Assembly (NCBI GenBank): GCA_963772815.1
Contig: CAVYYV010000005.1
Span: 318,626 to 382,625 of the forward strand
Reading direction: 5' to 3'
DNA length: 64,000 nt
Source of the DNA: an uncultured Acidimicrobiia bacterium
GTDB taxonomy: Bacteria > Actinomycetota > Acidimicrobiia > Spongiisociales > ZC4RG35
Shown here: positions 4,570 through 42,604 of the stretch, piece by piece
Numbering within the stretch: the first letter of the stretch is position 1
Layout of the letters: every line of letters starts with the position of its first letter
Notes under the pieces: model-generated
What the model saw: the letters and a program-made list of their open reading frames with translations, nothing else
Told to the model about the DNA's origin: nothing
Databases searched by the model: none
Program-made: the position numbers and the translations under genes

Positions 4570-6558
4570 CTAACCGGCTGCCACGGCCGGGCCCGGCTCC
4601 GGTCCGCCGCTGAACTGAGACTGGTAGAGCTCGGCGTAGGCCCCACCGGCCGTGAGGAGCCCGTCGTGAGTGCCTTGCTCGACGATCTGGCCGTCATCCA
4701 TCACCAGGATCAGGTCGGCGTCGCGGATGGTGGAGAGTCGGTGGGCGATGACGAAACTGGTGCGCTCACTGCGCAGGGCGGTCATCGCATGCTGCAACAG
4801 TGCCTCGGTCCGCGTGTCCACCGAGCTGGTGGCCTCGTCCAGGATCAGCAAAGCAGGGTTGGCCAGGAAAGCCCGAGCGATGGTGATGAGCTGTTTCTCG
4901 CCCGTGCTGACGTTGTCACCCTCGTCGTCGATCACGGTGTCGTAACCCTCGGGAAGGCTGTGCACGAACCGATCGACGAACGTGGCTCGGGCGGCCTCCA
5001 GGATCTCCTCGTCGGTGGCGTCGGGCCGACCGTAGGCGATGTTGTCACGAATGGATCCCTTGAAGAGCCAGGTGTCTTGGAGAACCATCCCCACCCGGGA
5101 CCGAAGATCGCTTCGCTTCACCCGGGAGATGTCGACCCCATCCAGCGTGATCTGCCCCCCGTCGAGGTCGTAGAAGCGCATGATCAGGTTGACCAGGGTG
5201 GTCTTGCCTGCGCCGGTGTGGCCCACGATGGCCACCATCTGGCCCGGCTCCACCGTCAGCGACACATCCTCGATCAAGGATTGCTCCAGGTCGTAGCTGA
5301 ACGAGACGTCCTCGAACGCAACCCTCCCCGCGCCACCATCGACCAGCGACCCGGCTTCCTCGTCGGACGGCTCCTCCTCGGCATCGAGCAGCTCGAACAC
5401 ACGCTCAGCTGAAGCCACGCCCGACTGGAGCAGGTTGAGCATCGAGGCCACCTGCGTAACCGGCTGGGAGAACTGGCGCGAGTACTGGATAAATGCCTGG
5501 ACATCGCCCAGGCTCATGGTGCCACTCGCCACCCTCAACCCTCCGATCACTGCTATCAGGACGTAGTTGAGATTCCCAATGAACATCATGATGGGCATGA
5601 TCAGCCCGGACAGGAACTGGGCCTTGAAGCTGGCCTGGTACAACTCCTCGTTGTCGACCTCGAAGGACTCCTGAACCTCGCGGTGGCGGCCGAACACCCT
5701 GACCAGCGCGTGACCGGTATAGGTCTCCTCGATCTTCGAGTTGAGAGTCCCGGTGCGCCGCCACTGGGTAATGAACTCGCTCTGGGAGCGGCGCATCACG
5801 AGGCCCGCTACGAATATCGTCACCGGGATGGTGATGAGGGCGATCAGGGCCAGGGTGGGTGAGATCCAGAACATCATCGCCACCACGAACAGCACGGTCA
5901 GCACCGACGACAGCATCTGGCTCATCGTCTGCTGGAGGCTCTGTGAGACGTTGTCGATGTCGTTGGTGACCCGGCTCAGCAGCTCGCCCCGCGGCTGGCG
6001 GTCGAAATAGCGCAGCGGCAGGCGGTTGAGCTTGTCCTCCACCTGGGCCCGCATGTCCAGGATCGTGGCCTGGACGACGTCATTGAGCACGTAGCCCTGG
6101 AGGTATCGCAGCAGCGAGGAGCCCAGGTACAGGGCGAGCACGATCAGCAACACGCGGCCCACGGCCCCGAAGTCGATGCCCCGGCCGGGCACCAGGTCGA
6201 TGCCCCTCAGCAGGTCGGCGATCTGGCTCTGGCCCCGGGCGATGGCGGCCTGAATGACCTGGTCCTTGGTCATTCCGGCCGGGAGGTTCTTGCCGATTGC
6301 CCCGGCGAAGATCAGATCGGTCGCCCGCCCCAGCACCTTGGGGCCGATGGCGGTGAGGGCCACACCGACGACGCCGGCCACCAGCACCACCGTCACTCTG
6401 ATTCGCTGTGGGCGCAAGTATCCCAGCAGCCGCCGCCCAGAAGTTCGGAAGTCGAGCGCCTTCTGGCCCACCATGCCTCCGCCGAAGGGGCCGTGCCGGC
6501 CCGGGCCGCCCTGGCCCTGGATTCGCTCCGTGGTCTTCATGGTGCGGGGAGCGGTCAT
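4570..6558 (-). CDS. ABC transporter, fused permease/ATP-binding exporter half-transporter
   Basis: ORF 4570..7065 is a read-through. Real start is the internal ATG (M170, MTAPRTMKTTERIQ...) at ~6558, overlapping the upstream gene's stop as ATGA. Six-TM exporter domain followed by Walker A GHTGAGKTT, signature LSGGQRQR-type region and Walker B ILDEATS. Confidence 0.8.
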   Translation of the reverse strand: MTAPRTMKTTERIQGQGGPGRHGPFGGGMVGQKALDFRTSGRRLLGYLRPQRIRVTVVLVAGVVGVALTAIGPKVLGRATDLIFAGAIGKNLPAGMTKDQVIQAAIARGQSQIADLLRGIDLVPGRGIDFGAVGRVLLIVLALYLGSSLLRYLQGYVLNDVVQATILDMRAQVEDKLNRLPLRYFDRQPRGELLSRVTNDIDNVSQSLQQTMSQMLSSVLTVLFVVAMMFWISPTLALIALITIPVTIFVAGLVMRRSQSEFITQWRRTGTLNSKIEETYTGHALVRVFGRHREVQESFEVDNEELYQASFKAQFLSGLIMPIMMFIGNLNYVLIAVIGGLRVASGTMSLGDVQAFIQYSRQFSQPVTQVASMLNLLQSGVASAERVFELLDAEEEPSDEEAGSLVDGGAGRVAFEDVSFSYDLEQSLIEDVSLTVEPGQMVAIVGHTGAGKTTLVNLIMRFYDLDGGQITLDGVDISRVKRSDLRSRVGMVLQDTWLFKGSIRDNIAYGRPDATDEEILEAARATFVDRFVHSLPEGYDTVIDDEGDNVSTGEKQLITIARAFLANPALLILDEATSSVDTRTEALLQHAMTALRSERTSFVIAHRLSTIRDADLILVMDDGQIVEQGTHDGLLTAGGAYAELYQSQFSGGPEPGPAVAAG

Positions 6559-8286
6559 GACGCCGCCACCCTGAGCTGGGACTCGACGATCTCGACGTAG
6601 GTGGGGCAGGTATCGAGCAGCTCGTGGTGAGTGCCCATTCCCACCACCAACCCGTCCTCCAGAACCACGATCCGGTCGGCATCCATGATGGTGGATACCC
6701 GCTGGGCCACCACGACCACGGTCGACTGAGCCGTCACCGGACGCAGGGCCCGCCGCAGTCGGGCATCGGTGGCCACGTCCAGGGCGGAGAACGAGTCGTC
6801 GAACAGGTACAGCTCGGGCCGGCGGATCAGGGCCCGGGCTATCGCCACCCGCTGGCGCTGGCCACCCGACAGCGTGGTCCCTTCCTGGGACACGGGGGCG
6901 TTGAGGCCCTCGGGCATGGCCTCCACGAAGTAGCGGGCCTGAGCGATCTCCAGCGCCTCCCACATCTCTTCTTCGGTGGCGTCGGGCTTGCCGTACGCGA
7001 GGTTGGAGGCGATGGTGCCCGAGAAGAGGAATGCCTTTTGAGGAACCAGTCCGATCTTGGCCCACAGCGCCTCGGGGTCGTACTCCCTCACGTCCACCCC
7101 GTCGACCAGCACGGCTCCTCCGGTGACATCGAACAAGCGCGGGATCAGGCTGACCAGCGTGGTCTTTCCGGCCCCGGTCGAGCCGATGATGGCGGTGGTC
7201 TCACCCGGGTCGGCGACAAAGCTGATGTCGCGTAGCACCGGGTAGCTGGCCCCCGGATACTTGAACTCCACCTGGCGCAGCTCCAACTCGACCGCGGGCT
7301 GCAGTCGTGGTGATGCCGGCGGTGGGAGGGACTACCGAAGACTCCGTGTCGAGCACCTCCCCGATGCGGTCGGCCGAGACCGAAGCGCGGGGAACCAGCA
7401 TGAACATGAAGGTGGACATCATCACTGCCATCAGGATCTGGATCAGATAGGACAAGTAGGCAACGACGGATCCGATCTGCATGGCCCCGGCCTCCACCCT
7501 GATCCCGCCGAACCACAAAACGGCGACGCTGGACAGGTTGAGGACCAGGAACACCGTTGGAAAGATCGCCGCCATCCAGCGGCCCACGGTGATGGCGACA
7601 TCGGTCAGCTCGCGATTGGCCAGACCGAACCGATCGGTCTCGAATGGCTCTCGGACGAAGGCCCGGATCACCCTGATCCCGGCGATCTGCTCGCGCAACA
7701 CCTGGTTGACCCGGTCTATGCGCCCCTGCATGAGGCGGAAAGCCGGCACCATGCGCGAGACGATCAGCCCTATGGCTCCTGCCAGCAGCGGGACCGCCAC
7801 TGCCACCAACCACGACAGCCCCACGTCCTCGCGCAGCGCCATGATCACGCCCCCAACCATCATCACGGGTGCCGGGATCAGCATGGTGAAGGTCATCAGG
7901 ACCAGCATCTGGACCTGCTGGGGATCGTTGGTGTTGCGGGTGATGAGCGACGGGGTTCCGAAGTGAGCCACCTCCCGGCCGGAGAAGTCCCCCACCGTCC
8001 GGAAGACGTCGAGCCGCAGGTCACGACCGAATGCCATGGCCGTGCGGGCCCCGAAGTAGACGGCAGTGATGGTGCAGGCCACCTGTAGAAGCGAGAAGGC
8101 CAGCATCCAGGCACCCACCCGGATGATGTAGTGGGTGTCGCCTGTGACGACACCGTTGTCGATGATGTCGGCATTGAGAGTGGGGAGATACAGGGCGGCC
8201 AGGGTGCCAATCAGCTGCAGCCCCACGATCAGCGAGATGACTCTCCGATAGGGTCGGAGATAACGCTTGAGGATCCGGACCAGCAT
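6555..8286 (-). pseudogene. ABC transporter permease/ATP-binding exporter, disrupted by a frameshift between the TMD (7201..8379 frame) and NBD (6555..7286 frame)
   Basis: The TMD ORF ends ...RIGEVLDTESSVVPP and then goes out of frame. The NBD ORF (ELRQVEFKYPGASYPVLRDISF..GSTGAGKTT...LSGGQRQR...LFDDSFSALD) is in another frame and opens only after a stop at ~7332. A 1-bp change in the CCCTCCC run at ~7322-7331 would fuse them as ...SSVVPPPPASPRLQPAVELELRQVEFKYPG. Start ATG ~8286 overlaps the tetR stop as ATGA. Confidence 0.7.
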
Positions 8287-27924: not shown

Positions 27925-30222
<2,298 letters not shown>

Positions 30223-30364
30223 AGGTTCCTCTGTGGATCTGTTTCATGGATTTCGTGGTGCCCCCCAACTCGATTTCGGACGCATCTCACCGGAGAGCAC
30301 ACAGGCCAAACGTCTCGTGAGTGGGCGATATTCCTATCCGTCACCGTCCTAAGCAAGAATCCTA

Positions 30365-30403
30365 CCTGAGACATTTATGAAATATGACATGGGGGGACTC
30401 AGG
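30365..30403. promoter_or_regulatory. Inverted repeat CCTGAGA-N25-ACTCAGG in the lon/dnaK divergent promoter region; possible HspR (HAIR-like) or other repressor site
   Basis: Arms resemble HAIR half-sites (CTTGAGT / ACTCAAG), but the spacer is 25 bp rather than 7. RBS AAGGAAAGGAA precedes the dnaK ATG. Confidence 0.25.
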
Positions 30404-30462
30404 TTGTACTGTGTGTCACGTTCTCCAATCACTCTTAGGAACCAAGGAAAGGAATCGACATC

Positions 30463-32301
30463 ATGGCTCGAGCAGTAGGCATCGACCTCGGCACCACCAA
30501 CTCGGTCATCGCCACCCTCGAGGGAGGCGACCCGACCGTCATACCCAATGCAGAGGGAGCCCGCACCACCCCGTCGGTGGTGGCCTTCAAGGACGGTGAG
30601 ATCCTCGTGGGCGAGGTGGCCAAGCGCCAGGCCATAACCAATCCCGACAAGACCGTCCGCTCCATCAAGCGCCACATGGGCGAAGACTGGAAGATCGAAG
30701 CCGACGGCAAGACCTACACCCCCCAGGAGATCTCGGCCCGCATTCTCATGAAGCTGAAGCGGGACGCCGAGTCGTATCTGGGTGACACCGTCACCGATGC
30801 CGTCATCACCGTGCCGGCCTACTTCAACGACGCCCAGCGCCAGGCCACCAAGGAGGCCGGCCAGATCGCCGGGCTCAACGTGTCCCGGATCATCAACGAG
30901 CCCACCGCCGCCTCACTGGCCTATGGGCTGGACAAGGAGGGCGACCAAACCATCCTCGTCTTCGACCTCGGGGGCGGCACGTTCGACGTCTCCGTCCTGG
31001 AGATCGGCGAGGGCGTGTTCGAGGTCAAGTCGACCATGGGCGACACGAAGCTGGGAGGCGACGACTGGGACCAGGTCATCATCGACTGGCTGGTCAAGAC
31101 ATTCGACAACGACCACGGCGTCGACCTGAGCAAGGACCGGATGGCCGTCCAGCGGCTCAAGGAAGCGGCCGAGAAGGCCAAGATCGAGTTGTCCTCGGTT
31201 TCCGAGACCGAGATCAACCTGCCCTTCATCACCGCCACGGCCGAGGGACCGCTGCATCTCCAGCAGAAGCTGACTCGCTCGGAGTTCGAGAAGATGTCGA
31301 CCGACCTGCTCGACCGGACCAAGCCGCCCTTCCGGCAAGCAATCAAGGATGCCGGGATCGATGTCTCCAGCATCGACCACGTGGTCCTGGTGGGTGGCTC
31401 CACCCGCATGCCCGCCGTGCAGGAGGTAGTTCGCGAGCTGACCGGAAAGGAGCCGCACAAGGGCGTCAACCCCGACGAGGTGGTGGCAGCCGGTGCCGCC
31501 ATCCAGGCCGGTGTCCTCAAGGGGGACGTAAAGGACGTGCTCCTACTCGACGTCACGCCCCTCACTCTCGGCATCGAGACCAAGGGCGGGGTCATGACCA
31601 AGATGATCGAGCGCAACACCACCATCCCAACCCGCAAGTCCGAGATCTTTACAACGGCCGAGAACAACCAGCCCGAGGTCGAGATCCACGTCCTCCAGGG
31701 TGAGCGAGCCATGGCCCCCGACAACAAGAGCCTGGGCAAGTTCCGCCTCACGGGCCTGCCACCCGCACCGATGGGTGTTCCCCAGATCGAGGTCACCTTC
31801 GACATCGATGCCAACGGCATCGTGAACGTGAACGCCAAGGACAAGGCCACCGGCAAGGAGCAGGCCATGACCATCACCGGTGGATCGGCCCTCGCCGACC
31901 AGGACATCGACCGCATGGTCAAAGATGCGGAATCCTACGCCGAGGAGGACCGCAAGCGGCGCGAGGCGGTGGAGACACGCAATCAGGCCGAGCAGCTGGT
32001 CAACCAGACCGAGAAGGTGCTCTCCGAGCAGGGCGACAAGCTGACCGACGACGAGAAGTCTCCCATCGAGACTGCCATGTCCGACCTGAAGGAGGCGGTG
32101 GCCTCTGAAGACACCTCGACCGAGGATCTGCGCTCCAAGATGGAGCACCTCGCCCAGGTCTCCCAAGGTGCCTTTACCCGGATGTATCAGGAGGCCGCCG
32201 AGCAGGCACAGGCCTCCGGCGCCGGCCAGGCCACTGAGGGCGTCACGGACGACGAGGAGGTCGTGGACGCCGAGATCATCGACGAGGGTGACGAGTCGTG
32301 A
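30463..32301 (+). CDS. dnaK: molecular chaperone DnaK (Hsp70)
   Basis: 612 aa. [28 protein letters not shown] signatures. Confidence 0.97.
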
Positions 32302-32353
32302 TCGAGCTGGCAATCGGTTCCGCCCTCGGGCCGGGCGACGGCCCCTATCGGGT

Positions 32354-32962
32354 GTGGTGGTCGACGTGACCGAGCGCGAGCAAGAAGCCGCCGTGGAGGC
32401 GGAAGTGGTCTCCGAAGGCCACCCCGAGGTGGTCACCGCCGAACCGCCCACCGCCGACGACCTGGGACTCGACCTGCCCGAGGATTCCCAGGCAGCGCGG
32501 GAGCTGTTGTTGACCAAGCTGGCCGAGGCCCGCGAAGAGGCATCGTCTTATCTGGATGACCTCAAACGCGTGGCGGCCGACTTCGACAACTTCCGTCGCC
32601 GCGCCATCCGCGAGCAAGCCGAGACCACGCAGCGAGCCGCAGAGCGGGTGGTGGCAGACCTCTTGCCTGCCCTGGACAGCTTCGACGCCGCGGTTGCGGT
32701 GGAGGCCTCGACCGAAGCTGAGAGGAAGCTTCTGGCCGGCATGTTGCGCACCCACGACCAGCTGCTGGGGATCCTCGCCAACCAGGGCCTAGAAATCGTC
32801 CCGGCCGCAGGCGAGCCATTCGACCCCGAGATCCACGAGGCCGTGGTTTCTCCCTCGGAAGGAGAAGGCCGCCTCATGGTGAGCGAGGAGCTGAGGCGGG
32901 GTTACAAGCTCAAGGACCGGCTCGTCCGCCCCGCTCTGGTGGCGCTCGAGTACCAAGACTGA
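32354..32962 (+). CDS. grpE: nucleotide exchange factor GrpE
   Basis: ORF 32168..32962. Conserved part [18 protein letters not shown]...LLPALDSFD...[11 protein letters not shown] is GrpE. GTG start at ~32354 just after the dnaK stop. Confidence 0.88.
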
Positions 32963-32969
32963 GGAGCCC

Positions 32970-34112
32970 ATGAACCGCGAATGGGTCGAGAAGGACTTCT
33001 ACTCGGTTCTGGGCGTGGCTGAAGACGCCCCCCAGGACGAGATCAAGCGTGCCTATCGCAAGCTTGCCCGGAAGCTGCATCCCGACGCCAACCCCGGCGA
33101 CACCACCGCCGAGGAGCGGTTCAAGGAGGTTTCGGAGGCCTACGCAACTTTGTCGGACCCCGAGCAGCGCAAGGAGTATGACCAGGTGCGGAGGCTCGCC
33201 TCGTCCGGCGGGTTCGGGGCCGGAGGCTTCGGTGGAGGCGGCTTCGGCGGCCAGCAGGTGCGGGTCGAGGACGTCTCAGACCTGTTCGGAGGTCTCGGTG
33301 GCCTGGGCGATCTATTCGGCGGAGCCGGGGCCCGGGGAGGCCGGCGAGCCGGGGCTGCGCCCGTCCGCGGCACCAACACGTCCTCGGACCTGACCATCTC
33401 CTTCGACGAGGCCTTCTCCGGACTCACCACCTCCCTACAGCTGCGCGGCCAAGCCGCCTGCTCCCACTGCGGAGGGACGGGGGCCGAACCACCCGGTCGG
33501 CCCAAGAGCTGCCCGACCTGCGGGGGAACGGGTTCGGTGGCGCGCAACCAGGGTTTCTTCTCCTTCAGCGAGGCCTGCCCGCAATGCCGGGGCTCGGGCG
33601 CGATCATCGACGAGCCGTGCACGGTGTGCCGCGGATCGGGCTCCGAGGTGCGAACCCGCTCCATCAGGGTGCGCATCCCGGCCGGGGTCAAAGACGGCGC
33701 CACCATCCGCATCACGGGCAAGGGCGGGCCGGGCCGCAACGGAGGGCCTCCCGGGGACCTGCTTGTCAAGGTGCATGTGACACCTCATCCGATCTTCGGA
33801 AGGTCGGGAAACAACCTGACGGTGACGGTCCCCATCTCCTTTTCGGAGGCGGCTCTGGGCACCAAGCTGGCCGTACCCACGATGAACGGGCCGGTCAGGA
33901 TCAAGATCCCGGCCGGCACCCAATCCGGGAAGGTGTTCCGGGTTCGCGACAAGGGTGTGACGGGAGGACGAGGCCACTCCGGCGATCTGATGGCTCGGGT
34001 GGAGATCCAGGTCCCCGAGAAGCTGTCCAAGGACGAGAAGAAGCTGCTCGAGCAACTCGACACGTACGAGACCGCCGACATGCGCGGTCACTTCGAGCCG
34101 TACCTGGAATGA
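32970..34112 (+). CDS. dnaJ: molecular chaperone DnaJ
   Basis: 380 aa. J domain with HPD ([10 protein letters not shown]), G/F-rich region, four CxxCxGxG zinc-finger repeats ([32 protein letters not shown]). Confidence 0.95.
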
Positions 34113-34122
34113 TGGTGGCGTC

Positions 34123-34518
34123 ATGAGCGACAGGTCCCGCAGGCGAGCCCTCTTCGTGATCTCGGTGGCCGCCGAGTTGGCGGGCATGCATCCCCAAACG
34201 CTTCGCATATACGAGCGTCGCGGGCTGATCGAGCCTTACCGCACTCCCGGAGGCACTCGACGCTACTCGCAGGAGGACATCGAGCGTCTGCGCCTCATCG
34301 CCGAACTGACCGGCCAGGGCTTGAACCTGGAGGGGGTCAAGCAGGTGATGGAGCTGCAAGACGAGATCGACCGTCTCAAGGGCGAAGTCGAGAAGATGGA
34401 GGATAAGATCGACGAGCTCAGCGCCGAGGCGGACGAGAAAATACGCGAGATCCACCGTTCGTACCGTCACGAGATCGTGCTCCGCTCCAACCTGCTCCCC
34501 GACGTTCCCCGCAAGTAG
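34123..34518 (+). CDS. hspR: heat-shock repressor HspR (MerR family)
   Basis: 131 aa. MerR-type HTH (FVISVAAELAGMHPQTLRIYERRGLIEPYRTPGGTRRYSQEDIERLRLI) plus a coiled-coil C-terminus. Immediately downstream of dnaJ, as in actinobacterial dnaK operons. Confidence 0.85.
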   Translation: MSDRSRRRALFVISVAAELAGMHPQTLRIYERRGLIEPYRTPGGTRRYSQEDIERLRLIAELTGQGLNLEGVKQVMELQDEIDRLKGEVEKMEDKIDELSAEADEKIREIHRSYRHEIVLRSNLLPDVPRK

Positions 34519-34591: not shown

Positions 34592-35380
34592 TTGTATCTA
34601 CAGATTCACGGCGCCCGAGGCTCGATGCCGGTCGGCACATCCGAGTTTGCTCGCTACGGAGGCGACACAACCTGCTACTCGCTTCACCACGACGACGGTT
34701 CGGTGATAGCCATCGTGGACGCCGGTACCGGCTTGCGCAGCATCTTGCCCGATGTCCCCGGGGTCGGTGCTACCTACAACATCGTGCTGACTCACTACCA
34801 CTGGGATCACATCCAGGGCCTGTCCATGTGTGCCCCGATGTGGCGGCGTGACATCACCCTTCGTATCTTCGGTCCCGATCACCCGGCCCGCGCCATCGGC
34901 GACGCCATCACCCCTCCCTGGTTCCCGGTCTCGATCCGGGACGCGGACGTCGAGTTCGAAGCTTCTCCCGAGTCCTTCGAGATCGACGGTGTCTCCGTTA
35001 CGAGCTTTCCGCTCCATCATCCCCAGGGAGGACTGGGATATCGCTTCGACTTCGAGGGTCAGGCCATCGTTGTGGCGACCGATCACGAGGCCGGAACCGA
35101 CGCCGATCGGGTACTCGTGGAGATGTCCCACGACGCCGACATCCTGGTCCACGACGCGCAGTACCTCCCCGAGGAGATCGAGCAGAAGAAGGGGTGGGGA
35201 CACAGCACGTGGGAACAGGCCACCAAGATCTCGGCCGAAGCCGGCGTTGATCATCTGCTCTTCGGCAGTCACGACCCGAGACGCTCCGACGATGAGGTGG
35301 ACCGATTGGTGAAACAGGCCGGCGAGCGCTTCCCCAACGTCTCCGCCGCCTCCCCCAACCAGTCCTTCGTTCCCAACTGA
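34592..35380 (+). CDS. MBL-fold metallo-hydrolase
   Basis: 262 aa with HxHxDH motif (LTHYHWDHIQG) and downstream His/Asp ligands (VATDHE, HDAQY, GSHD). Confidence 0.75.
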   Translation: MYLQIHGARGSMPVGTSEFARYGGDTTCYSLHHDDGSVIAIVDAGTGLRSILPDVPGVGATYNIVLTHYHWDHIQGLSMCAPMWRRDITLRIFGPDHPARAIGDAITPPWFPVSIRDADVEFEASPESFEIDGVSVTSFPLHHPQGGLGYRFDFEGQAIVVATDHEAGTDADRVLVEMSHDADILVHDAQYLPEEIEQKKGWGHSTWEQATKISAEAGVDHLLFGSHDPRRSDDEVDRLVKQAGERFPNVSAASPNQSFVPN

Positions 35381-35487
35381 CTCCGACTACGGACATCGAC
35401 ACCCTGGGATCGCCGCCGGTCATCCTCGGTCTGTTTGTCGATGTAGCCTCAGATCACACCTAGGTCGAGCAGGCGGGACGCCACCGA

Positions 35488-38400
35488 GTGAACCCTTATC
35501 AGCGCTATCTGCCCCGACTGGTTCGCTATTGGGACGAGGACGCGCCGGGCAACCTGCACCAGGCCATCGACGGATCCATGGTGTTCGTCGACATCTCCGG
35601 ATTCACCAAGATGTCGGAGCGCCTGGCTCGCCATGGCAAGGTGGGAGCGGAAGAGGTGACGGGTGTCATAGACGACACCTTCGGGGAGCTCCTGCCGGAG
35701 GCCTACTCATTCGGGGCGAACCTCCTCAAATTCGGTGGTGACGCCCTGTTGCTGTTGTTCAACAAGGACGGTCACGCCTCCAGAGCCGCTGCGGCCGCCT
35801 ACGCCATGAGGGAAAAGCTGAAGGAGGTGGGCACCTTCCAGACCACGGCGGGACGGGTCTCGCTACGCATGTCCGTGGGTGTCCATTCCGGCAGCTTCGA
35901 CTTCTACCTCGTAGGCGCATCGCACCGTGAGCTGATCCTGGCGGGGCCGGCGGCCACCAGGGTCGTGGAGATGGAAGGTGCCGCATCCGCCGGACAGATC
36001 CTCCTCAGCCCGGAGACCGCCGCATCGCTTTCCCCCGCGTCTCTCGGCGCTGAGAGCGGGCCGGGCACCCTCCTGCGGTCGCCGCCTGAGGTGGAGCGGT
36101 TGGAGTTCCGGGCAGCCTCCAGCCCCCCGCTAGATCTGGCCCAGTTCGTCCCAACCGGCCTGCGTGGAATCCTGGCCGAATCCAGCATCGAGCCGGAGCA
36201 TCGTCCGGCTGCGGTTGCCTTTGTTCACTACACGGGGTTCGATCGCCTACGGACAGCCAATGACGGAGAGGCGACCGCTGCAGTCCTTCAGGGATTGGTC
36301 CGTTCGGTGCAGGAGGCGGCCGATCGCCACGGGGTGACGTTCCTGGCGACAGACGTGGCACCCGACGGGGGCAAGTTCATACTCACTGCCGGTGTTCCCG
36401 AGAGAAGTGGCAACGACGAGGAGCGAATGCTGCTCGCCATGAGAGAGATAACCGACAACGGGCCCCTGGAATTCGCTCTCCAGATCGGGGTCAACTGGGG
36501 CCCGGTCTTCTCGGGGGCGGTGGGACCGGCGTATCGCCGGACCTACACCGTCATGGGCGACGTGGTGAATCTCGCCGCCCGTCTCATGGCCCAGGCTCCG
36601 GCCGGGGAGATCTACGCCACCCGTGCTGTGCTGGACGGCTCACGAACCACTTTTCAGCTGGCCTCCCCAAAACCATTTCGGGTCAAGGGAAAGAAGTTGC
36701 CCATCCAGGCGCACTCGGTGGGTGACCCGGCGGGAAGTCGGGATACGACCCACCAAACCGATGTCGAGCTCATCGGCCGCCACGAGGAGCTGACGGCGCT
36801 CACTGCGATCTGGAAAGAGGTCGAGCGCGGAGCGGCCATGGTGGCCGAGGTCTCTGCCGAGGTGGGGATGGGCAAGAGCCGGCTGCTGGCGGAGTTCACC
36901 CACCGTGCCCGACCCGGTGCAATCGTTCGGGCGGAGTGCCGCCTGTATCAGAGGGCAACTCCCTACTTCCCGTTCCGGTCTCTCCTGTCAGGTCTGTGGG
37001 GTCTGAATGGCGAGGATCCGGCGGGGGACCTTGGGCGTCTGAGAAGCCTCATCAGGGCGAAGTCCCCCGAGCTCGAACCCTGGCTGGCACTCATCGGCGT
37101 GCCCGTGGGCCTGGATGTCGAAGAGTCGCCCGAGGTCATGGATCTGGAGAGTCAGTTTCGCCCCGGCCGCACCTTGTGGGCCGTTGCCAGCCTCATGCGA
37201 GCCACCATCGACGAGCCCACGCTGCTCGTGCTCGAGAACGCGCAATGGATGGACGATGTCTCCGCCGAGCTCCTCACCGGATTGGTTACGACGATGGAGA
37301 GTGAGCCGTGGATGATCCTGATCACCCGCCGACCCGGCAAGGAGGGCTTCACCGCACCGGACTCGCCCGACCTCACACGAATCGAGCTCTCACCACTCTC
37401 GTCCGAAGAAGCCACACTGTTGATTCTCGAGGCCACCGAAGACGCTCCGCTCCGCCCCAGGGATGTCGAGACCCTGGTCGAAAGGGCCGAAGGAAGGCCC
37501 TTCTTCCTCCTGGAGCTGCTCAAGGCGCTCCGCAGCGGCAGTGATGTGGAGGCTCTGCCCCACTCCGTGGAGGGTCTGATCGGTGCCCGCATCGACCAGC
37601 TCGCCCCCCAAGATCGCCACCTGCTGAGGCGACTGGCGGTACTCGGGCCCGGTTTCCAGATCGACCACACCGCCGCCGTTCTGACCGACGAGGAACGCCG
37701 ACCGGGGTGGCGAGCAAGAGCGCTCGACCGCCTGAGTGAGTTCGTTTACCCGGAGAACTCGGGCTGGACCCAGTTCCGCAACACCCTCATCAGGGACATC
37801 GCATACGAGGGCCTTCCGTTCAAGACCCGTCTGGATCTCCACGCCAGGATCGGAGACTCGATACGGCTCGAGGCCGAGCCCCATCCGGAGTCGGAGGCCG
37901 AGCTCCTGTCTCTGCACTACTTCGAGGCAAGGAGATGGAGGGAAGCCTGGCGCTACTCCTTGCTGGCTGGGAACTCGGCCAAGAACGTGTTCGCCAACCT
38001 GGCAGCAGCCACCTTTTACAGACGGGCTCTGGCTTCCGGTCGCCATGTGGATCTGGAAGCCGACCAGCGTGCCGAGGTTGCCCAGCTGCTGGGTGATGTC
38101 CTCGAGCAAGCCGGGCTCTACGACGAGGCCCTCGACGCATACCGGCGGGCAGGAACGTGGGTCGACAAAGGAGGACCGGAGCGAGCCGGCCTGTTGCTGA
38201 AACGAGCTCATGCGCGGATGAGGAAGGCCTCGTATGCCCAGGCTTTGCGTGATGCATCGGCCGGCCTTCGTCTTCTGGGCGACAAGCAATCCGTGGAGGC
38301 AGCCAGGCTCAGGGCCCAGCTGAGAGTGTTTCGCGCCACGGTTCGAATGGCACAACAACGGCCCAGAGAGTCCCTCGAGATAGCGGAGCGTGCTGCGGCC

Positions 38401-39282
38401 GACGCCCTGAAGGCGAGCGAGAAGGCCGCGCTCGCCCGGGCCTACGCCATCATGGACTGGGCCAACTTCGTCATGGGTAACCCCGAGCAGGCCACCCGCT
38501 CCCCCCAAGCCGTCGAGATCTACGAATCGCTGGGACTTCTCGACAAGGCGGCCGACGTGATCAACAACATGGGCGGCTTCTGCTTCTACCTGGGCGACTG
38601 GAAGGAAGCCACAGCCTGGGCCTCCAAGAGTCGGGACACCTATCTACGGGCGGGAAACGACGTCCAGGCGGCCATGGTCGGATCCAACCTGGGCGAGTTG
38701 CTGGTCAGTCAGCGAAGGCTGGAGGAGGCCGAACAGATCCTGATCGACTCGGTGAGGATGCTCCGTGCGGCAGGAAACCAGGACGACGCCGTGAACGCAG
38801 AGCTGCAGATGGCCCGGCTGATCGCCAAGCGGGGCGAGATCGACCAGGCCGAGGAGCGATTTCGTCGGGTTCGCCATGAAGCGCTCGAGTTGGGGCAGAC
38901 TCAGATCGCCTACGAGGCTGCCCTCCATCTAGCCGAGTGTCACGTCGAACAGGATGACAATACGAGAGCCCTCGACGAGATCACGGCAGCCCTCGAACGG
39001 GTCGACGAGGAAGCGGAATTCTTCGAGGCGAAGCGGGGGCGTATCGCCGCTGCGGCGATGCTGAACCTGGGTCGGGTAGACGAGGCGCGCGCCGAGCTGG
39101 ATTCCGCCCTCGAGGCCGCCCTGGAGCTAGGTCTCGTCTACGACGAGGCCCTGATCAGGATCGATCGTCTCCAGATGGCCAGGCGGTTGGGAGAGACGCC
39201 CGACCCCGAGGAGGCCGACGTTGCGATCCGCCTGCTCGACCGCTTGGGGATCGAGCAGGCGGTACCGGTTCCTCAGAGCTGA
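35488..39282 (+). CDS. signal-transduction protein with tandem class III adenylate/guanylate cyclase homology domains, a STAND/AAA ATPase and C-terminal TPR repeats
   Basis: 1264 aa. CHD1 ~res 30-200 (FVDISGFTKMSE...LKFGGDALLL...VGVHSG). CHD2 ~res 235-400 (VAFVHYTGFDRL...FLATDVAPDGGKFILTAG...IGVNWGPV). P-loop EVSAEVGMGKSRLLAEF, then a long helical TPR-like region. Resembles the mycobacterial cyclase-ATPase-TPR family but has no C-terminal LuxR HTH. Confidence 0.8.
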   Translation: MNPYQRYLPRLVRYWDEDAPGNLHQAIDGSMVFVDISGFTKMSERLARHGKVGAEEVTGVIDDTFGELLPEAYSFGANLLKFGGDALLLLFNKDGHASRAAAAAYAMREKLKEVGTFQTTAGRVSLRMSVGVHSGSFDFYLVGASHRELILAGPAATRVVEMEGAASAGQILLSPETAASLSPASLGAESGPGTLLRSPPEVERLEFRAASSPPLDLAQFVPTGLRGILAESSIEPEHRPAAVAFVHYTGFDRLRTANDGEATAAVLQGLVRSVQEAADRHGVTFLATDVAPDGGKFILTAGVPERSGNDEERMLLAMREITDNGPLEFALQIGVNWGPVFSGAVGPAYRRTYTVMGDVVNLAARLMAQAPAGEIYATRAVLDGSRTTFQLASPKPFRVKGKKLPIQAHSVGDPAGSRDTTHQTDVELIGRHEELTALTAIWKEVERGAAMVAEVSAEVGMGKSRLLAEFTHRARPGAIVRAECRLYQRATPYFPFRSLLSGLWGLNGEDPAGDLGRLRSLIRAKSPELEPWLALIGVPVGLDVEESPEVMDLESQFRPGRTLWAVASLMRATIDEPTLLVLENAQWMDDVSAELLTGLVTTMESEPWMILITRRPGKEGFTAPDSPDLTRIELSPLSSEEATLLILEATEDAPLRPRDVETLVERAEGRPFFLLELLKALRSGSDVEALPHSVEGLIGARIDQLAPQDRHLLRRLAVLGPGFQIDHTAAVLTDEERRPGWRARALDRLSEFVYPENSGWTQFRNTLIRDIAYEGLPFKTRLDLHARIGDSIRLEAEPHPESEAELLSLHYFEARRWREAWRYSLLAGNSAKNVFANLAAATFYRRALASGRHVDLEADQRAEVAQLLGDVLEQAGLYDEALDAYRRAGTWVDKGGPERAGLLLKRAHARMRKASYAQALRDASAGLRLLGDKQSVEAARLRAQLRVFRATVRMAQQRPRESLEIAERAAADALKASEKAALARAYAIMDWANFVMGNPEQATRSPQAVEIYESLGLLDKAADVINNMGGFCFYLGDWKEATAWASKSRDTYLRAGNDVQAAMVGSNLGELLVSQRRLEEAEQILIDSVRMLRAAGNQDDAVNAELQMARLIAKRGEIDQAEERFRRVRHEALELGQTQIAYEAALHLAECHVEQDDNTRALDEITAALERVDEEAEFFEAKRGRIAAAAMLNLGRVDEARAELDSALEAALELGLVYDEALIRIDRLQMARRLGETPDPEEADVAIRLLDRLGIEQAVPVPQS

Positions 39283-39289
39283 GCTCGGA

Positions 39290-40525
39290 TCACTTGAACC
39301 GCCAGTCGCCGAAGAACAAGACGTCCCAGGTGGTGATGCCGTCGTAATCCTGGACGACGGACACGATGCATCCCTGGTCGCCGGTGGGAATCACGGAAGC
39401 ATCCTGGCTGGCGGCTGTCTTTTCTCCAGGAGTGTCCGTACAGGGGGGCATCTCCTTGAATTGCGTATAGCCGTCGCTCCCATCCGGGTCGTAATTGAGC
39501 ACGGCATCGAACAACCCGGCCACGGGACGTTCGAAGGTGATGTCTGCCCGGTACAGAGCCACCTGGCTCGGGTCGCCCAGCTCGAAGGTCACCGTGTCCT
39601 CACCCGTCGCCGAATCGACCGCCTTCAGTGAGTAGGCCTTGGGAGTGCATGTCGGCCCATCGAGGTTCTGGTGCCGTGTGATGTTGGCGCTCGTATTCCC
39701 ATTCGTCTTGAGCCCGGTGCTTTCGCCACAATCCAGGAAGCCGTCGAAGTCCGACAGGTAGAAGATCGTGTCGTTAGCCGGGTTGTTACCGAAGTCACCA
39801 CTTCCCTCCAGAGACATCTCGCCGGCCAGAGGTTGAACCTTGATCCCGTCGAACGGACGCGCCGAATCGACCGTGACCCGGCAGTTGTCCCGGCTGCCCG
39901 CATCTGGGCCAGAATCCGAGGCAATCCTGCAGTTGGCGATCGACTCGTCGATGCTCGTGCCAGGATCGTCGGTTTTCGCCAGAGCCGTGTACGGATCGCC
40001 CGACGACCCATCCACTCCAACACCGGGTACCACCTGAGCCCCGGATCGAACCTGGAAGGTGCCGGCCACCACGCTGCCCTGGTAGGCGGTGATCAGGATC
40101 TTGGCGTCGCCCTTCAGTTCGAGGTCAAGGTCGGCCATCGACGCGAGCGGAACACCCACGAGAGTGACGGTCAGATTCTCGCTCGTGTCGATCCGACCAC
40201 ATGGCGTCCCCTGTGCCCCGCCCGACTTGACACCTATCCCGTCGTCCGACAGGCCCGGGCCCTTGGCATTACCCGTCACCTTCGCGTATGGCCCGGTGAT
40301 GGTCAGCTCGCAGCGATTGGGGCTCGCGATCGTCTGCGGAGTGTGAACGCTGCCGTCGCCATCCGTGTAGACGAACTGTCTTTGTCCGTCTGAGCCCAGA
40401 TGCAGATGCAAGGTGCCGGCGTCGTTGGGCAGATGATCCCCCAGGGCGGGAATCATCGCAATCAACATCGCCAAAGCTGCCACAACTGACAGCGCCAGGT
40501 AGACGGGACGAGATCCTCTACGCAT
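39290..40525 (-). CDS. hypothetical exported protein
   Basis: 411 aa. N-terminal membrane anchor/signal (VYLALSVVAALAMLIAMIPALG). Gly/Asp/Thr-rich with several Cys pairs. No domain recognised. Confidence 0.6.
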   Translation of the reverse strand: MRRGSRPVYLALSVVAALAMLIAMIPALGDHLPNDAGTLHLHLGSDGQRQFVYTDGDGSVHTPQTIASPNRCELTITGPYAKVTGNAKGPGLSDDGIGVKSGGAQGTPCGRIDTSENLTVTLVGVPLASMADLDLELKGDAKILITAYQGSVVAGTFQVRSGAQVVPGVGVDGSSGDPYTALAKTDDPGTSIDESIANCRIASDSGPDAGSRDNCRVTVDSARPFDGIKVQPLAGEMSLEGSGDFGNNPANDTIFYLSDFDGFLDCGESTGLKTNGNTSANITRHQNLDGPTCTPKAYSLKAVDSATGEDTVTFELGDPSQVALYRADITFERPVAGLFDAVLNYDPDGSDGYTQFKEMPPCTDTPGEKTAASQDASVIPTGDQGCIVSVVQDYDGITTWDVLFFGDWRFK

Positions 40526-40636: not shown

Positions 40637-42283
40637 CTATCCCACCACTTCCAGATCCGCCCCGTACAACTCCAGGGTGCGAGCGGTTCGCCGCCACGAG
40701 GCGACGTTGTGGCCGGCGGCAGGGAGGATGCGGTAGGTCGCCCCTTCCACCCAGGTCGGGTAGGCGCGCACATTGCGCGCCACCCACCTGCCGTTCCGTG
40801 GGGCGAACTCGACGGTCATGATCACCCCGTCCTGGGTCTCGGGCAGGAAACGCTGCCCGGAGAGGACATTTCCCAGCCCGTAGAAGATGTACTCACCGTT
40901 CACCTCCTCGACCGGGGAGACGACGTGGGCGTGATGGCCCACCACCAGGTCGACGTCGGGCGAGGCGATCAGAGCCCGGGCCACCTCCTTCTGATAGGCG
41001 GTGGGCGCGGCCTGGTATTGCACACAGCAATGCATGCTCACCACCACCACGTCGGCCCCTTCCTCCCTGGCCCGGTGGGCCTCGGCCAGAATCTGGTCCA
41101 GGTCCAGCATCTGCACCAGCCACGGCTTGTCCTCCGGCAGCCGCAACCCGTTCAGCCACCAGGTGGCGGCGATATGGGCCACCGTCACGTCGCCCACCCG
41201 ATAGAGCGTGGCGTGACCCGCCTCGGACTCCGTGGTTGCCATCCCCGCCTGCAACAGGCCGGCGTCGTGTAATCCCTGCACCGTCGCCTCGATGCCACTT
41301 AGGCCCTGGTCCCAGGAGTGGTTCGATGCGGTCGAGCAGCCGTTGTAGCCGGCCTCGGCCAGGCCGTCGGCCACCTCGTGGGGGGTGTTGAAGCGGGGAT
41401 AGCTCGAAAGGTCCCGGTCGGTGGCGGACAGGGGCGTCTCCAGGTGGCAGATGGCGACATCGACCGAGCCGATGATGTGGGCTACTGGGGCGAACATGGG
41501 CCCGAAGTCATATGCCGCTCCGTAGGCGGCCGCCTTGCGCCATAGCTGGCTGTGGATCAACACGTCGCCCGTGAATGCCATCGTCACAGTGGGTCGTGGC
41601 GGGGGCGACGCGGGAGTCAGGCCCAGGGCGCGGGAAAGGAACGACGCCATCTGGTCCCGCAGCACTGGCCGGGTAGGGCAAAACCGGTCGTCGGCGGGAG
41701 GGTTGCAGCCCTTGGTGATACCGGCTGTGGCCAGAGCCGCGATGTCTGCAGAGAACGGTGACTCCCCGTCGTCGACGAACGGATCCTCTCCAGCCGGCGC
41801 CAGGTGGAGTGCCCGATTGAGGAAGGCGGCCATCTCTTGGCGCGTGACCACCCGATCTGGACAGAAGAGGTGTGGCCCGCAGCCACGGGTGATTCCGGCC
41901 ACGGCAATCGCCTCGATATCTGACTCGAATATCGAACCGTCGTCGTCGGTGAACGTGTCACCGTGGGCCGCCGGCAGATGCAGAGCACGAGCGAGGAAAG
42001 CCGCCATCTGGCCCCGGGTGACCGAATCCGCCGGACAGTAGAGGTCGGCCTCTCTACAGCCGCGGGTGATTCCGGCAACCACGATCGCTTCAATGGCGCC
42101 TTCATGGACGTCTCCGTCGTCATCGAAGAAGGTCCCTCCCGGGCTCGAGGGCGAGGGGAAAACGATCGCGCCGTCAGCAGCCGACGCCACTGCGGCTGCG
42201 TTGGGGCTGATCAGATCTATCCCCTCAGTTCCGCTCCCGGCGACGGCAACGAAGAGCGCGAGGACCATTGTTGCCGGGCCCAT
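40637..42283 (-). CDS. CapA-family (poly-gamma-glutamate synthesis/metallophosphatase-like) protein with three N-terminal S-layer-homology (SLH) repeats
   Basis: ORF 40637..42463. Three ~50-aa repeats (FxDDDGxxHExAIEAIxxAGITxGC...xCPxxxVTRxQMAAFLxRAL) fit the SLH pattern. They are followed by CapA-like regions (MAFTGDVLIHSQLW, VAICHLETPLS, VVVSMHCCVQYQ, VVGHHAHVVSPVE, IFYGLGNVLSGQ). Start likely M61/M66 (signal-like MVLALFVAVAGSG), since the upstream 180 bp has poor GC3 on this strand. Confidence 0.7.
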   Translation of the reverse strand: MGPATMVLALFVAVAGSGTEGIDLISPNAAAVASAADGAIVFPSPSSPGGTFFDDDGDVHEGAIEAIVVAGITRGCREADLYCPADSVTRGQMAAFLARALHLPAAHGDTFTDDDGSIFESDIEAIAVAGITRGCGPHLFCPDRVVTRQEMAAFLNRALHLAPAGEDPFVDDGESPFSADIAALATAGITKGCNPPADDRFCPTRPVLRDQMASFLSRALGLTPASPPPRPTVTMAFTGDVLIHSQLWRKAAAYGAAYDFGPMFAPVAHIIGSVDVAICHLETPLSATDRDLSSYPRFNTPHEVADGLAEAGYNGCSTASNHSWDQGLSGIEATVQGLHDAGLLQAGMATTESEAGHATLYRVGDVTVAHIAATWWLNGLRLPEDKPWLVQMLDLDQILAEAHRAREEGADVVVVSMHCCVQYQAAPTAYQKEVARALIASPDVDLVVGHHAHVVSPVEEVNGEYIFYGLGNVLSGQRFLPETQDGVIMTVEFAPRNGRWVARNVRAYPTWVEGATYRILPAAGHNVASWRRTARTLELYGADLEVVG

Positions 42284-42339
42284 TACAGGAGTGTGGCACG
42301 GGGCGAAGATCCGAGCGGGCATAATGGCGGCCAAATGGA

Positions 42340-42604
42340 CAGCTACTCGGGACCGGCTCGCATCCTCGACTCCAACGGGATACTGCTGACCGTGGGCAGC
42401 GTCGAACTCGAATCCAAGCCCGAGACCCGCTCCTGGGGCGGCCTCCTGAGGGTGATCGCCCACACGGGTGTGGCGGGCAAGGCGCTGAGCATCAAGCTCG
42501 ACCTCGGGCAGGGGAGAGTCGGTGATGCCGCCCTGGATCCCCTGTCACAGGAAGACGGGGTGGCCTTCTCCGAGGTAGCCGGGATCGGCCCCCAGCCATT
42601 CTGA
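42340..42604 (+). CDS. small hypothetical protein (88 aa)
   Basis: Part of track ORF 41963..42604. From ATG ~42340 (MDSYSGPARILDSNGILLTVGSVELESK...) GC3 is ~84% on this strand versus ~68% for the opposite-strand frame. Convergent with kynureninase. No homology recognised. Confidence 0.3.

Follow-up and report, generated by a model that had tools for sequence, protein, structure and literature searches.

What does the gene for a metallo-β-lactamase (MBL)-fold hydrolase have to do with the large cyclase gene that follows it at the end of a heat-shock operon in an uncultured Acidimicrobiia bacterium? The two genes lie in a 64,000-nucleotide stretch of contig CAVYYV010000005.1 (assembly GCA_963772815.1; the whole stretch is called the window here, and its first letter is position 1), and a preliminary description of this DNA had suggested that they form a cyclase/phosphodiesterase signalling pair. 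According to the analysis described here, the 1264-aa protein is very probably a bacterial nucleotidyl cyclase of the soluble adenylyl cyclase (sAC, ADCY10) type, class IIIb-like, whose two cyclase homology domains (CHD1 and CHD2) should fold as an intramolecular pseudo-heterodimer with a single composite catalytic site. A phosphodiesterase partnership of the MBL protein with this cyclase is, judging from its signature and gene order, fairly likely, and the signalling pair as a whole is moderately likely.

Both open reading frames (ORFs) are present on the + strand in the same orientation (Table 1), and since thousands of full-length homologues are found for each, neither can be a chance ORF. 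Gene order and gene calls are identical on a 468-kb public contig (ENA ERZ25039549 contig_24653), and the nearest named relatives are metagenome-assembled genomes of Acidimicrobiia. The public annotation begins the MBL gene at Met12, giving 251 aa. Because the 11 additional N-terminal residues (xYLxIHGARGS) are kept at the protein level in 262-aa homologues, the TTG at 34592 is probably the true start.

The 1264-aa protein matches Pfam Guanylate_cyc (PF00211) in two stretches (E 1.5e-25; 90.3 bits against a cutoff of 21.9), and so scores above the curated threshold for a class III nucleotidyl cyclase. AAA_16 follows at residues 427-608 (E 1.2e-17), and models of the tetratricopeptide repeat (TPR), among them TPR_12 and TPR_MalT, span residues 862-1225. 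No Pfam helix-turn-helix (HTH) or LuxR model matches the protein. The preliminary description had listed the same parts, namely two class III CHDs, a P-loop NTPase and a TPR array with no LuxR HTH, and directly upstream an MBL-fold gene with an HYHWDH motif after the hspR operon; the domain models and the coordinates agree with it.

In a sequence search of the PDB with the N-terminal 441 aa, human sAC is the best match (E 3e-20), and it is again the best match of a profile built from 40 orthologues (E 2e-30). CHD1, including its N-terminal helix, aligns to the C1 domain of sAC, and the Asn/Arg motif of CHD2 aligns to C2. The AlphaFold2 (AF2) model of residues 1-431 has a pLDDT of 90.5 and a pTM of 0.89, and the top 24 Foldseek matches to it are human sAC (E 3.5e-29, TM 0.80, about 466 aligned columns), with the soluble domains of membrane AC9 ranking after them. 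Structure predictions were fed with trimmed database homologues, and sAC residue numbering was recovered from the PDB alignments.

The catalytic residues are divided between the two domains. In CHD1, the metal-binding aspartates of C1 are represented by Asp35 (sAC Asp47) and Asp85 (sAC Asp99), and the bicarbonate-site lysine by Lys81 (sAC Lys95), each invariant or nearly so among 117 full-length orthologues. In CHD2, Thr354 (sAC Thr405, the class IIIb threonine of C2) and the transition-state residues Asn361 (sAC Asn412) and Arg365 (sAC Arg416) are found in 117 of 117, and Lys400, the phosphate-binding lysine of a VKGK motif in which Lys402 is also present, is conserved. Conversely, the Asn/Arg positions of CHD1 are occupied by Thr157 and Glu161, and the metal-Asp positions of CHD2 by His247 and Gly295. 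The domains are thus complementarily degenerate: with the metal pair in CHD1 and the Thr/Asn/Arg/Lys set in CHD2, a single composite site is expected, on the pattern of sAC and the membrane cyclases. The preliminary description had asked which domain retains its catalytic residues, and had named the loss of both as fatal to its reading; each domain keeps its own half, and the pseudo-heterodimer that it proposed agrees with this complementary loss and with the AF2/Foldseek match to sAC. A threonine in place of the substrate-binding aspartate is the hallmark of class IIIb, all tested prokaryotic members of which respond to inorganic carbon (PMC2613629), and it is Thr354, at the position of sAC Thr405, that makes the enzyme class IIIb-like. 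The sequence does not, however, tell which base the enzyme prefers or whether bicarbonate controls it.

The family departs from sAC around the β2-β3 hairpin of CHD2, which in the AF2 model is a longer two-stranded extension, with two residues more per strand than in CHD1, and carries an invariant Asp289 and Lys296. The purine-selecting, adenine-binding Lys334 of sAC has no counterpart here, as no Lys or Glu stands at the canonical position anywhere in the family. By the strand register of the AF2 model, the position corresponds to Ala287 (Ala/Gly in the family), and by HMMER to Ala291 (Ala/Ser). MAFFT, which is unreliable around this hairpin, places Arg280 there by way of large gaps, and the alignment of the segment is uncertain. 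This family-wide loss of the substrate-recognizing lysine is what would be seen if the tandem CHD were a non-catalytic, nucleotide-binding pseudo-cyclase sensor that signals through STAND oligomerization alone, and 6yii, which resembles class III cyclases and binds ATP but has no cyclase activity, does appear at structural rank 34. Yet the 117 orthologues, down to 48% identity, all keep the metal Asp pair, the Asn, the Arg, the Thr of class IIIb and the phosphate Lys, which is the pattern expected under selection for catalysis. Mycobacterial cyclases in which Gln/Asn replaces the Lys/Asp pair (Rv0386, Rv1900c) are active, and genes for proteins that bind cyclic nucleoside monophosphates (cNMPs) recur as neighbours of the cyclase; both points also count against a pseudo-cyclase, which is improbable.

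The cyclase domains are followed by a Walker A motif (G460-M-G-K-S464; G460-x-G-K-S/T is invariant in the family) and a Walker B region (L-L-V-L-E583-N584). The latter reads hhhhE-D in most family members; the E-D is found in 89 of the 117 orthologues, vs. E-N here (window 37234-37239, residues 583-584), with which the STAND NTPase may bind nucleotide and hydrolyse it poorly. A P-loop/STAND segment is also predicted in full-length sAC, some 50 residues beyond C2 and with TPR-like motifs after it (PMC3475452; PMC12802110, citing Leipe 2004 and Danot 2009); the P-loop lies at residues 516-523 (PMC3475452). In domain order and spacing, AAA_16 and TPR compare with this C-terminal region of sAC.

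This arrangement is widespread. The protein database holds more than 5,800 relatives of the cyclase at E <1e-10, and nearly all of the best 120 measure about 1230-1300 aa, with identities of 48-81%. Confirmed relatives occur at 563 places in a species-representative genome set, mostly in Actinomycetota, with Acidimicrobiia, Thermoleophilia/Gaiellaceae, Nitriliruptorales, Agromyces and Ornithinicoccus among the hosts; of these 563, 80 loci were fetched for a comparison of the cyclase's neighbours. The recognition of bacterial sAC-like cyclases that conserve the domain structure goes back to Kobayashi et al. (2004; cited in PMC11006738 and PMC3085406). The tandem of CHDs, which the preliminary description called unusual for bacteria, is the known plan of sAC, and with 563 places and relatives described since 2004 that statement was overstated.

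The MBL protein belongs to Pfam Lactamase_B_2 (PF12706, E 8.5e-17), and its AF2 model has a pLDDT of 91. It carries the motif T67-H-Y-H-W-D-H73, all of which except Tyr69 is invariant in its orthologue clade. The ligands of the binuclear site (His68, His70, Asp72, His73, His143, Asp164 and His227) are invariant in 28 MBL orthologues, as is His204 of a GHST motif. In order, a PDB sequence search returns ZipD, RNase Z, PhnP, BA1088 and YhfI, and Foldseek returns RNase Z (1y44, TM 0.78), ZipD, YhfI (TMt 0.80), ELAC1 and PhnP, with Apyc1 at rank 45. However, residues 154-175 of the MBL protein span ZipD residues 153-220 (21 residues vs. 67), so that about 46 residues are deleted at the RNase Z flexible arm. 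The NCBIfam RNase Z model gives 74.5 bits where 252 are required, no RNase Z equivalog cutoff is reached, and the score for the PhnP model is below its cutoff as well. Because the flexible arm is absent, tRNA processing by this protein is unlikely, and the missing arm and the missed cutoffs set it apart from tRNase Z/RNase BN. The protein would rather be an arm-less, binuclear-metal phosphodiesterase of an RNase Z/ElaC-like branch.

Two other identities were rejected. The window protein has no match to PF02112 (PDEase_II) even at E values up to 10, and a homologue matches it at E 0.023 over only the 21 residues of the HxHxDH motif, which rules out a classical class II phosphodiesterase. The NCBIfam model of a cyclic nucleotide-degrading phosphodiesterase (NF041851) aligns over nearly the full length at 41 bits against a cutoff of 400, which rules out an orthologue of that curated family. 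The "atypical class-II phosphodiesterases" Rv1339, CpdA and YhfI belong to PF12706, descend from RNase Z and share a [T/S]HxHxDH signature, and Rv1339 hydrolyses 3',5'-cAMP/cGMP as well as 2',3'-cNMPs (PMC9293780). Both the PF12706 fold and this signature are present in the MBL protein.

The position of the MBL gene relative to the cyclase bears directly on its role. In a protein search, an orthologue clade at 57-87% identity is separated from all other homologues, which reach at most 50%. A search by tblastn detects an MBL orthologue of at least 60% identity in 12 loci (the window, L001, L004, L005, L012, L025, L163, L165, L167, L169, L170 and L171). A CHD-AAA_16-TPR gene is present in all 12, and lies immediately downstream in 11; in L163, it is inverted and two genes away. 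The spacer between the two genes is 4-120 bp across orthologous loci, and stop and start are 4-7 bp apart in L165, L167, L169 and L171, which suggests translational coupling. In three loci, L004 (Ornithinicoccus), L012 and L025 (Nitriliruptoraceae), the pair persists without the hspR operon, and therefore the conserved unit is MBL-cyclase and not hspR-MBL. In L165, L167, L169 and L170, the cyclase is only 33-36% identical to that of the window, and the MBL protein 60-72%; because the pair is kept despite such divergence of the cyclase, an old partnership is argued for. The cultivable Salsipaludibacter albus also carries both genes. Two of the 12 loci have irregular gene calls: the cyclase of L163 (8164-12012, - strand) is called as two ORFs, of 894 aa (CHD and AAA_16) and 351 aa (TPR), suggesting a frameshift or a natural split, and the 772-aa product downstream of the MBL orthologue in L171 (916-3234) joins a cyclase domain to Helicase_C, RecQ_Zn_bind and HRDC and probably arose by rearrangement or misassembly.

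The same loci can be read in another way, with the cyclase correctly identified and the MBL protein an enzyme of RNA or 2',3'-cyclic phosphates (RNase Z/BN/PhnP-like) that closes the heat-shock operon and adjoins the cyclase through inherited gene order. Its best sequence and fold matches are indeed RNase Z and ZipD, JGI homologues are named "ribonuclease BN" and "phosphoribosyl 1,2-cyclic phosphodiesterase", the cleavage of 2',3'-cNMPs is shared by Rv1339-type enzymes (PMC9293780), the MBL gene directly follows hspR in 8 loci including the window, and the cyclase adjoins hspR without an MBL gene in L002, L003, L014 and L040. This reading is unlikely, given the absent arm and missed cutoffs, a pair that is kept both away from hspR and beside strongly diverged cyclases, a spacing that suggests translational coupling, and other clades of the MBL family that adjoin cNMP-binding genes. 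The preliminary description had proposed the cyclase/phosphodiesterase pair as one of two equal options, and had held that firm clustering with tRNase Z or lactonases without synteny would overturn it. The signature and the synteny in 12 of 12 loci lend the pair indirect support; its sequence and fold neighbourhood does not, as the protein is indeed nearest to (arm-less) RNase Z and lacks a PF02112 match.

A purpose-built hidden Markov model (HMM) of the cyclic nucleotide-binding (CNB) domain finds cNMP-binding ORFs flanking 19 of 84 cyclase loci, several kinds of which are confirmed by Pfam. These include proteins with two CNB domains, a P-loop-like segment of the neuropathy-target-esterase (NTE) type and a patatin domain; a 140-aa CNB protein; and MFS and SulP-STAS transporters with a CNB domain. 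The first kind, which has the plan of NTE, is exemplified by a 684-aa protein in L165 (10475-12529, - strand), and is also found in L005, L012, L025, L046, L163 and L169. In L003 and L040, hspR and the cyclase are separated by a small cNMP-binding gene. Transporters with a C-terminal CNB domain stand immediately upstream of the cyclase in L027 (SulP and STAS, 5670-7922) and L041 (MFS, 6314-7993). The SulP family includes bicarbonate transporters, and such a neighbour would fit a bicarbonate-regulated enzyme of the sAC type. In L053 (7770-11795), the stop-to-stop frame of the cyclase extends upstream and matches the CNB HMM (E 2e-13); it may be a CNB-cyclase fusion.

CNB genes also accompany other clades of the MBL family. 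A second clade (about 46% identity) lies divergently beside a response regulator-oxidoreductase gene and a CNB-HATPase gene on three contigs, and in L083 a 43%-identical MBL gene begins 29 bp after a CNB gene. The three contigs (L172, 2887-5891; L173; L174) encode a response regulator fused to a pyridine-nucleotide-disulfide oxidoreductase together with a cNMP-binding HATPase_c protein, which looks like an uncharacterised cNMP-linked signalling unit.

The CNB-patatin neighbours in several loci also raise the question of anti-phage defence. In an Avs/Pycsar-like module, the TPR-STAND part would sense a phage protein and switch on the cyclase, whose cNMP product would in turn activate a CNB-patatin lipase; an Apyc1-like MBL protein would keep the system off. 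The effector-STAND-TPR layout, weak, generic and partial PADLOC matches to PycC (E 1.5e-8 to 7e-5), and a faint Apyc1 (PF23023) signal on the MBL family, with Apyc1 at fold rank 45, are all compatible with it. It is nevertheless highly improbable. The surroundings are stable and of a housekeeping kind (lon, the dnaK operon, kynureninase), recurring in several Acidimicrobiia loci, and full-length orthologues, at 48-81% identity, are spread over many lineages, unlike patchy defence islands. PADLOC defence models are not significant for the MBL gene or the neighbouring gene, no significant PycC or Apyc1 match in a defence island was found at the window locus, and no effector is encoded in the 64-kb window.

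A related reading, also very improbable, is of a STAND-triggered "alarm" cyclase, in which the TPR array would detect a stress or phage protein, a possibly non-canonical cNMP would activate a membrane-degrading lipase and the MBL protein would act as a safety catch. It is put forward because the purine-selecting lysine is absent, the Asp289/Lys296 hairpin is invariant, the MBL protein is Apyc1-like and sister loci encode CNB-patatin lipases. If it were true, the recurrent position beside lon and dnaK-hspR could reflect coupling to proteotoxic stress.

Several observations weigh against the cyclase/phosphodiesterase pair. The MBL protein scores higher with RNase Z models (74 bits) than with the curated cNMP phosphodiesterase model (41 bits). 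Its gene is directly upstream in only 5 of about 62 evaluable cyclase loci (L001, L004, L005, L012 and L025), and thus the cyclase does not need it. Among the matches listed in a metagenome scan, 80 MBL relatives at a distance of 31-43% identity lack such a cyclase in their vicinity. In the window, 107 bp and a weak hairpin separate the two genes, and neither single-sequence searches nor the purpose-built HMM find a CNB or patatin ORF in its 64 kb. As for the cyclase, the absence of a counterpart to Lys334 makes the identity of its product, and even robust activity, uncertain. Bicarbonate control is not to be assumed, because Arg176 of the sAC bicarbonate site aligns with Val160 (Val in 103 of 117; Arg158, two residues before it, is Arg in 88 of 117), and of the Lys95/Arg176 pair that defines this site only the equivalent of Lys95, Lys81, is kept.

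With these points weighed, the cyclase/phosphodiesterase pair could work as follows. CHD1 would supply Asp35 and Asp85, and CHD2 Thr354, Asn361, Arg365 and Lys400, to one active site at which the tandem would make a cyclic purine nucleotide. The symmetry-related second pocket, lined by Lys81 of CHD1 and by His247, Asp289 and Lys296 of CHD2, would be catalytically dead and, by analogy with the bicarbonate site of sAC, is likely a regulatory site. The STAND-TPR part could serve as a sensor and a nucleotide-dependent switch through which a ligand gates the cyclase. The MBL gene, co-oriented and probably co-transcribed with the cyclase, would encode the enzyme that most likely hydrolyses the cyclase's product, ending or shaping the signal. 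CNB effectors would read this signal, that of the present genome being presumably encoded outside the 64-kb window.

Table 1. Coordinates of the two genes, their domains and their neighbours in the window
Feature	Position	Strand	Basis and remarks
MBL-fold (Lactamase_B_2) hydrolase, putative cNMP phosphodiesterase	34592..35380	+	262 aa, TTG start; Pfam PF12706
Spacer between MBL gene and cyclase gene, 107 bp	35381..35487	+	Weak terminator-like hairpin at 35415-35430
Probable sAC-type nucleotidyl cyclase, CHD1-CHD2-STAND NTPase-TPR	35488..39282	+	1264 aa, GTG start
CHD1, aa 24-196, C1-like	35557..36075	+	sAC C1 is the best PDB sequence match; conservation in 117 orthologues; AF2 strand map
CHD2, aa 237-417, C2-like	36196..36738	+	PDB alignments; family conservation; AF2 strand map
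AAA_16/STAND P-loop NTPase core	36766..37311	+	Pfam AAA_16; conservation
TPR array, putative sensor/scaffold, aa ~862-1225	38071..39162	+	Pfam TPR_12, TPR_MalT, TPR_8 and others; profile matches to PDB TPR proteins
dnaK-grpE-dnaJ-hspR heat-shock operon	30463..34518	+	Pfam; ends 73 bp before MBL gene
dnaK	30463-32301	+	Pfam
grpE	end at 32962	+	Pfam
dnaJ	32970-34112	+	Pfam
hspR, MerR-type	34123-34518	+	Pfam
411-aa secreted or membrane-anchored protein, family unassigned	39290..40525	-	Convergent with cyclase; signal/TM-like N-terminus
SLH domain and PGA_cap (capsule synthesis/CapA-like) protein	40637-42463	-	Two genes downstream of cyclase

A scan for promoters and terminators yields no promoter and no more hairpins than expected by chance. 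The HspR operator consensus (HAIR, CTTGAGT-N7-ACTCAAG) was not found anywhere in the window with up to three mismatches allowed. The operon order dnaK-grpE-dnaJ-hspR followed by the MBL gene is repeated in L001, L005, L163, L165, L167, L169 and L170, and in L002, L003, L014 and L040 the dnaK operon and the cyclase occur without the MBL gene. In Acidimicrobiia, lon together with the dnaK operon is found repeatedly beside the cyclase (window 27925-34518, L001, L005, L163, L165 and L169).

No neighbour of the cyclase is conserved more widely than the 411-aa protein encoded downstream. By tblastn, it lies directly downstream in about 33 of the 80 loci, from Acidimicrobiia to Agromyces (the window, L002, L004-L006, L009-L012, L015-L017 and others), and this adjacency, conserved across classes, suggests a functional or co-transfer link. 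It has no Pfam, NCBIfam or PDB match and no structure match. In other loci, this position is taken by shorter relatives (301-403 aa), one of which has a weak SdrD_B domain, and the SLH and PGA_cap gene also recurs in the related loci L001, L005, L165 and L167.

Taken as a whole, the pair of the window is real and well conserved, and probably a signalling module of a fairly ordinary and expected kind. Its interest lies with its relatives. The function of the STAND/TPR tail of animal sAC, some 1100 residues, is still unexplained, and a study of 2025 found no biochemical difference between the full-length and the truncated enzyme (PMC12802110). A bacterial family with the same overall plan and with partners (an MBL phosphodiesterase, putative here, and CNB effectors) offers tractable genetic models for what the sAC tail senses, and would add a cyclase-linked clade to the recently recognized MBL-fold cNMP phosphodiesterases of Actinobacteria.

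In comparison with known systems, the cyclase resembles the Rv0386/Rv1358/Rv2488c-type proteins in that a class III CHD is fused to an AAA_16/STAND NTPase and TPR in an actinobacterial host. Those proteins have a single CHD that needs homodimerization and a C-terminal LuxR-type HTH; in contrast, the 1264-aa protein has two complementary CHDs and matches no HTH model, which sets it outside their type. The MBL protein shares with tRNase Z/RNase BN (ElaC) its best sequence and fold similarity and the metal-binding and HST motifs, and differs in lacking the flexible arm (exosite) and in being about 45 residues shorter. With Rv1339 of M. tuberculosis, CpdA of C. glutamicum and YhfI of B. subtilis, it has in common the PF12706 fold, a length of about 250-270 aa, the [T/S]HxHxDH signature, an actinobacterial distribution and a relationship to RNase Z without the tRNA arm. 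YhfI is among its top structural matches, although their sequence similarity is marginal (E 0.002). At the motif's two variable positions, the MBL protein has aromatic residues (Tyr, Trp) rather than small ones, and it stands in a separate clade that is linked to the cyclase locus.

The closest known counterpart of the cyclase is sAC itself. The human protein is longer (1610 aa vs. 1264 aa), identity in the catalytic core is about 21%, no haem domain is evident in the bacterial protein, and the extended CHD2 hairpin with its invariant Asp289/Lys296 pair distinguishes the bacterial family. On the other hand, both are soluble proteins without a membrane anchor, in which a C1-C2 tandem in one chain is predicted to share a single composite active site, and in which a P-loop about 55-60 residues beyond C2 precedes a TPR-like region.

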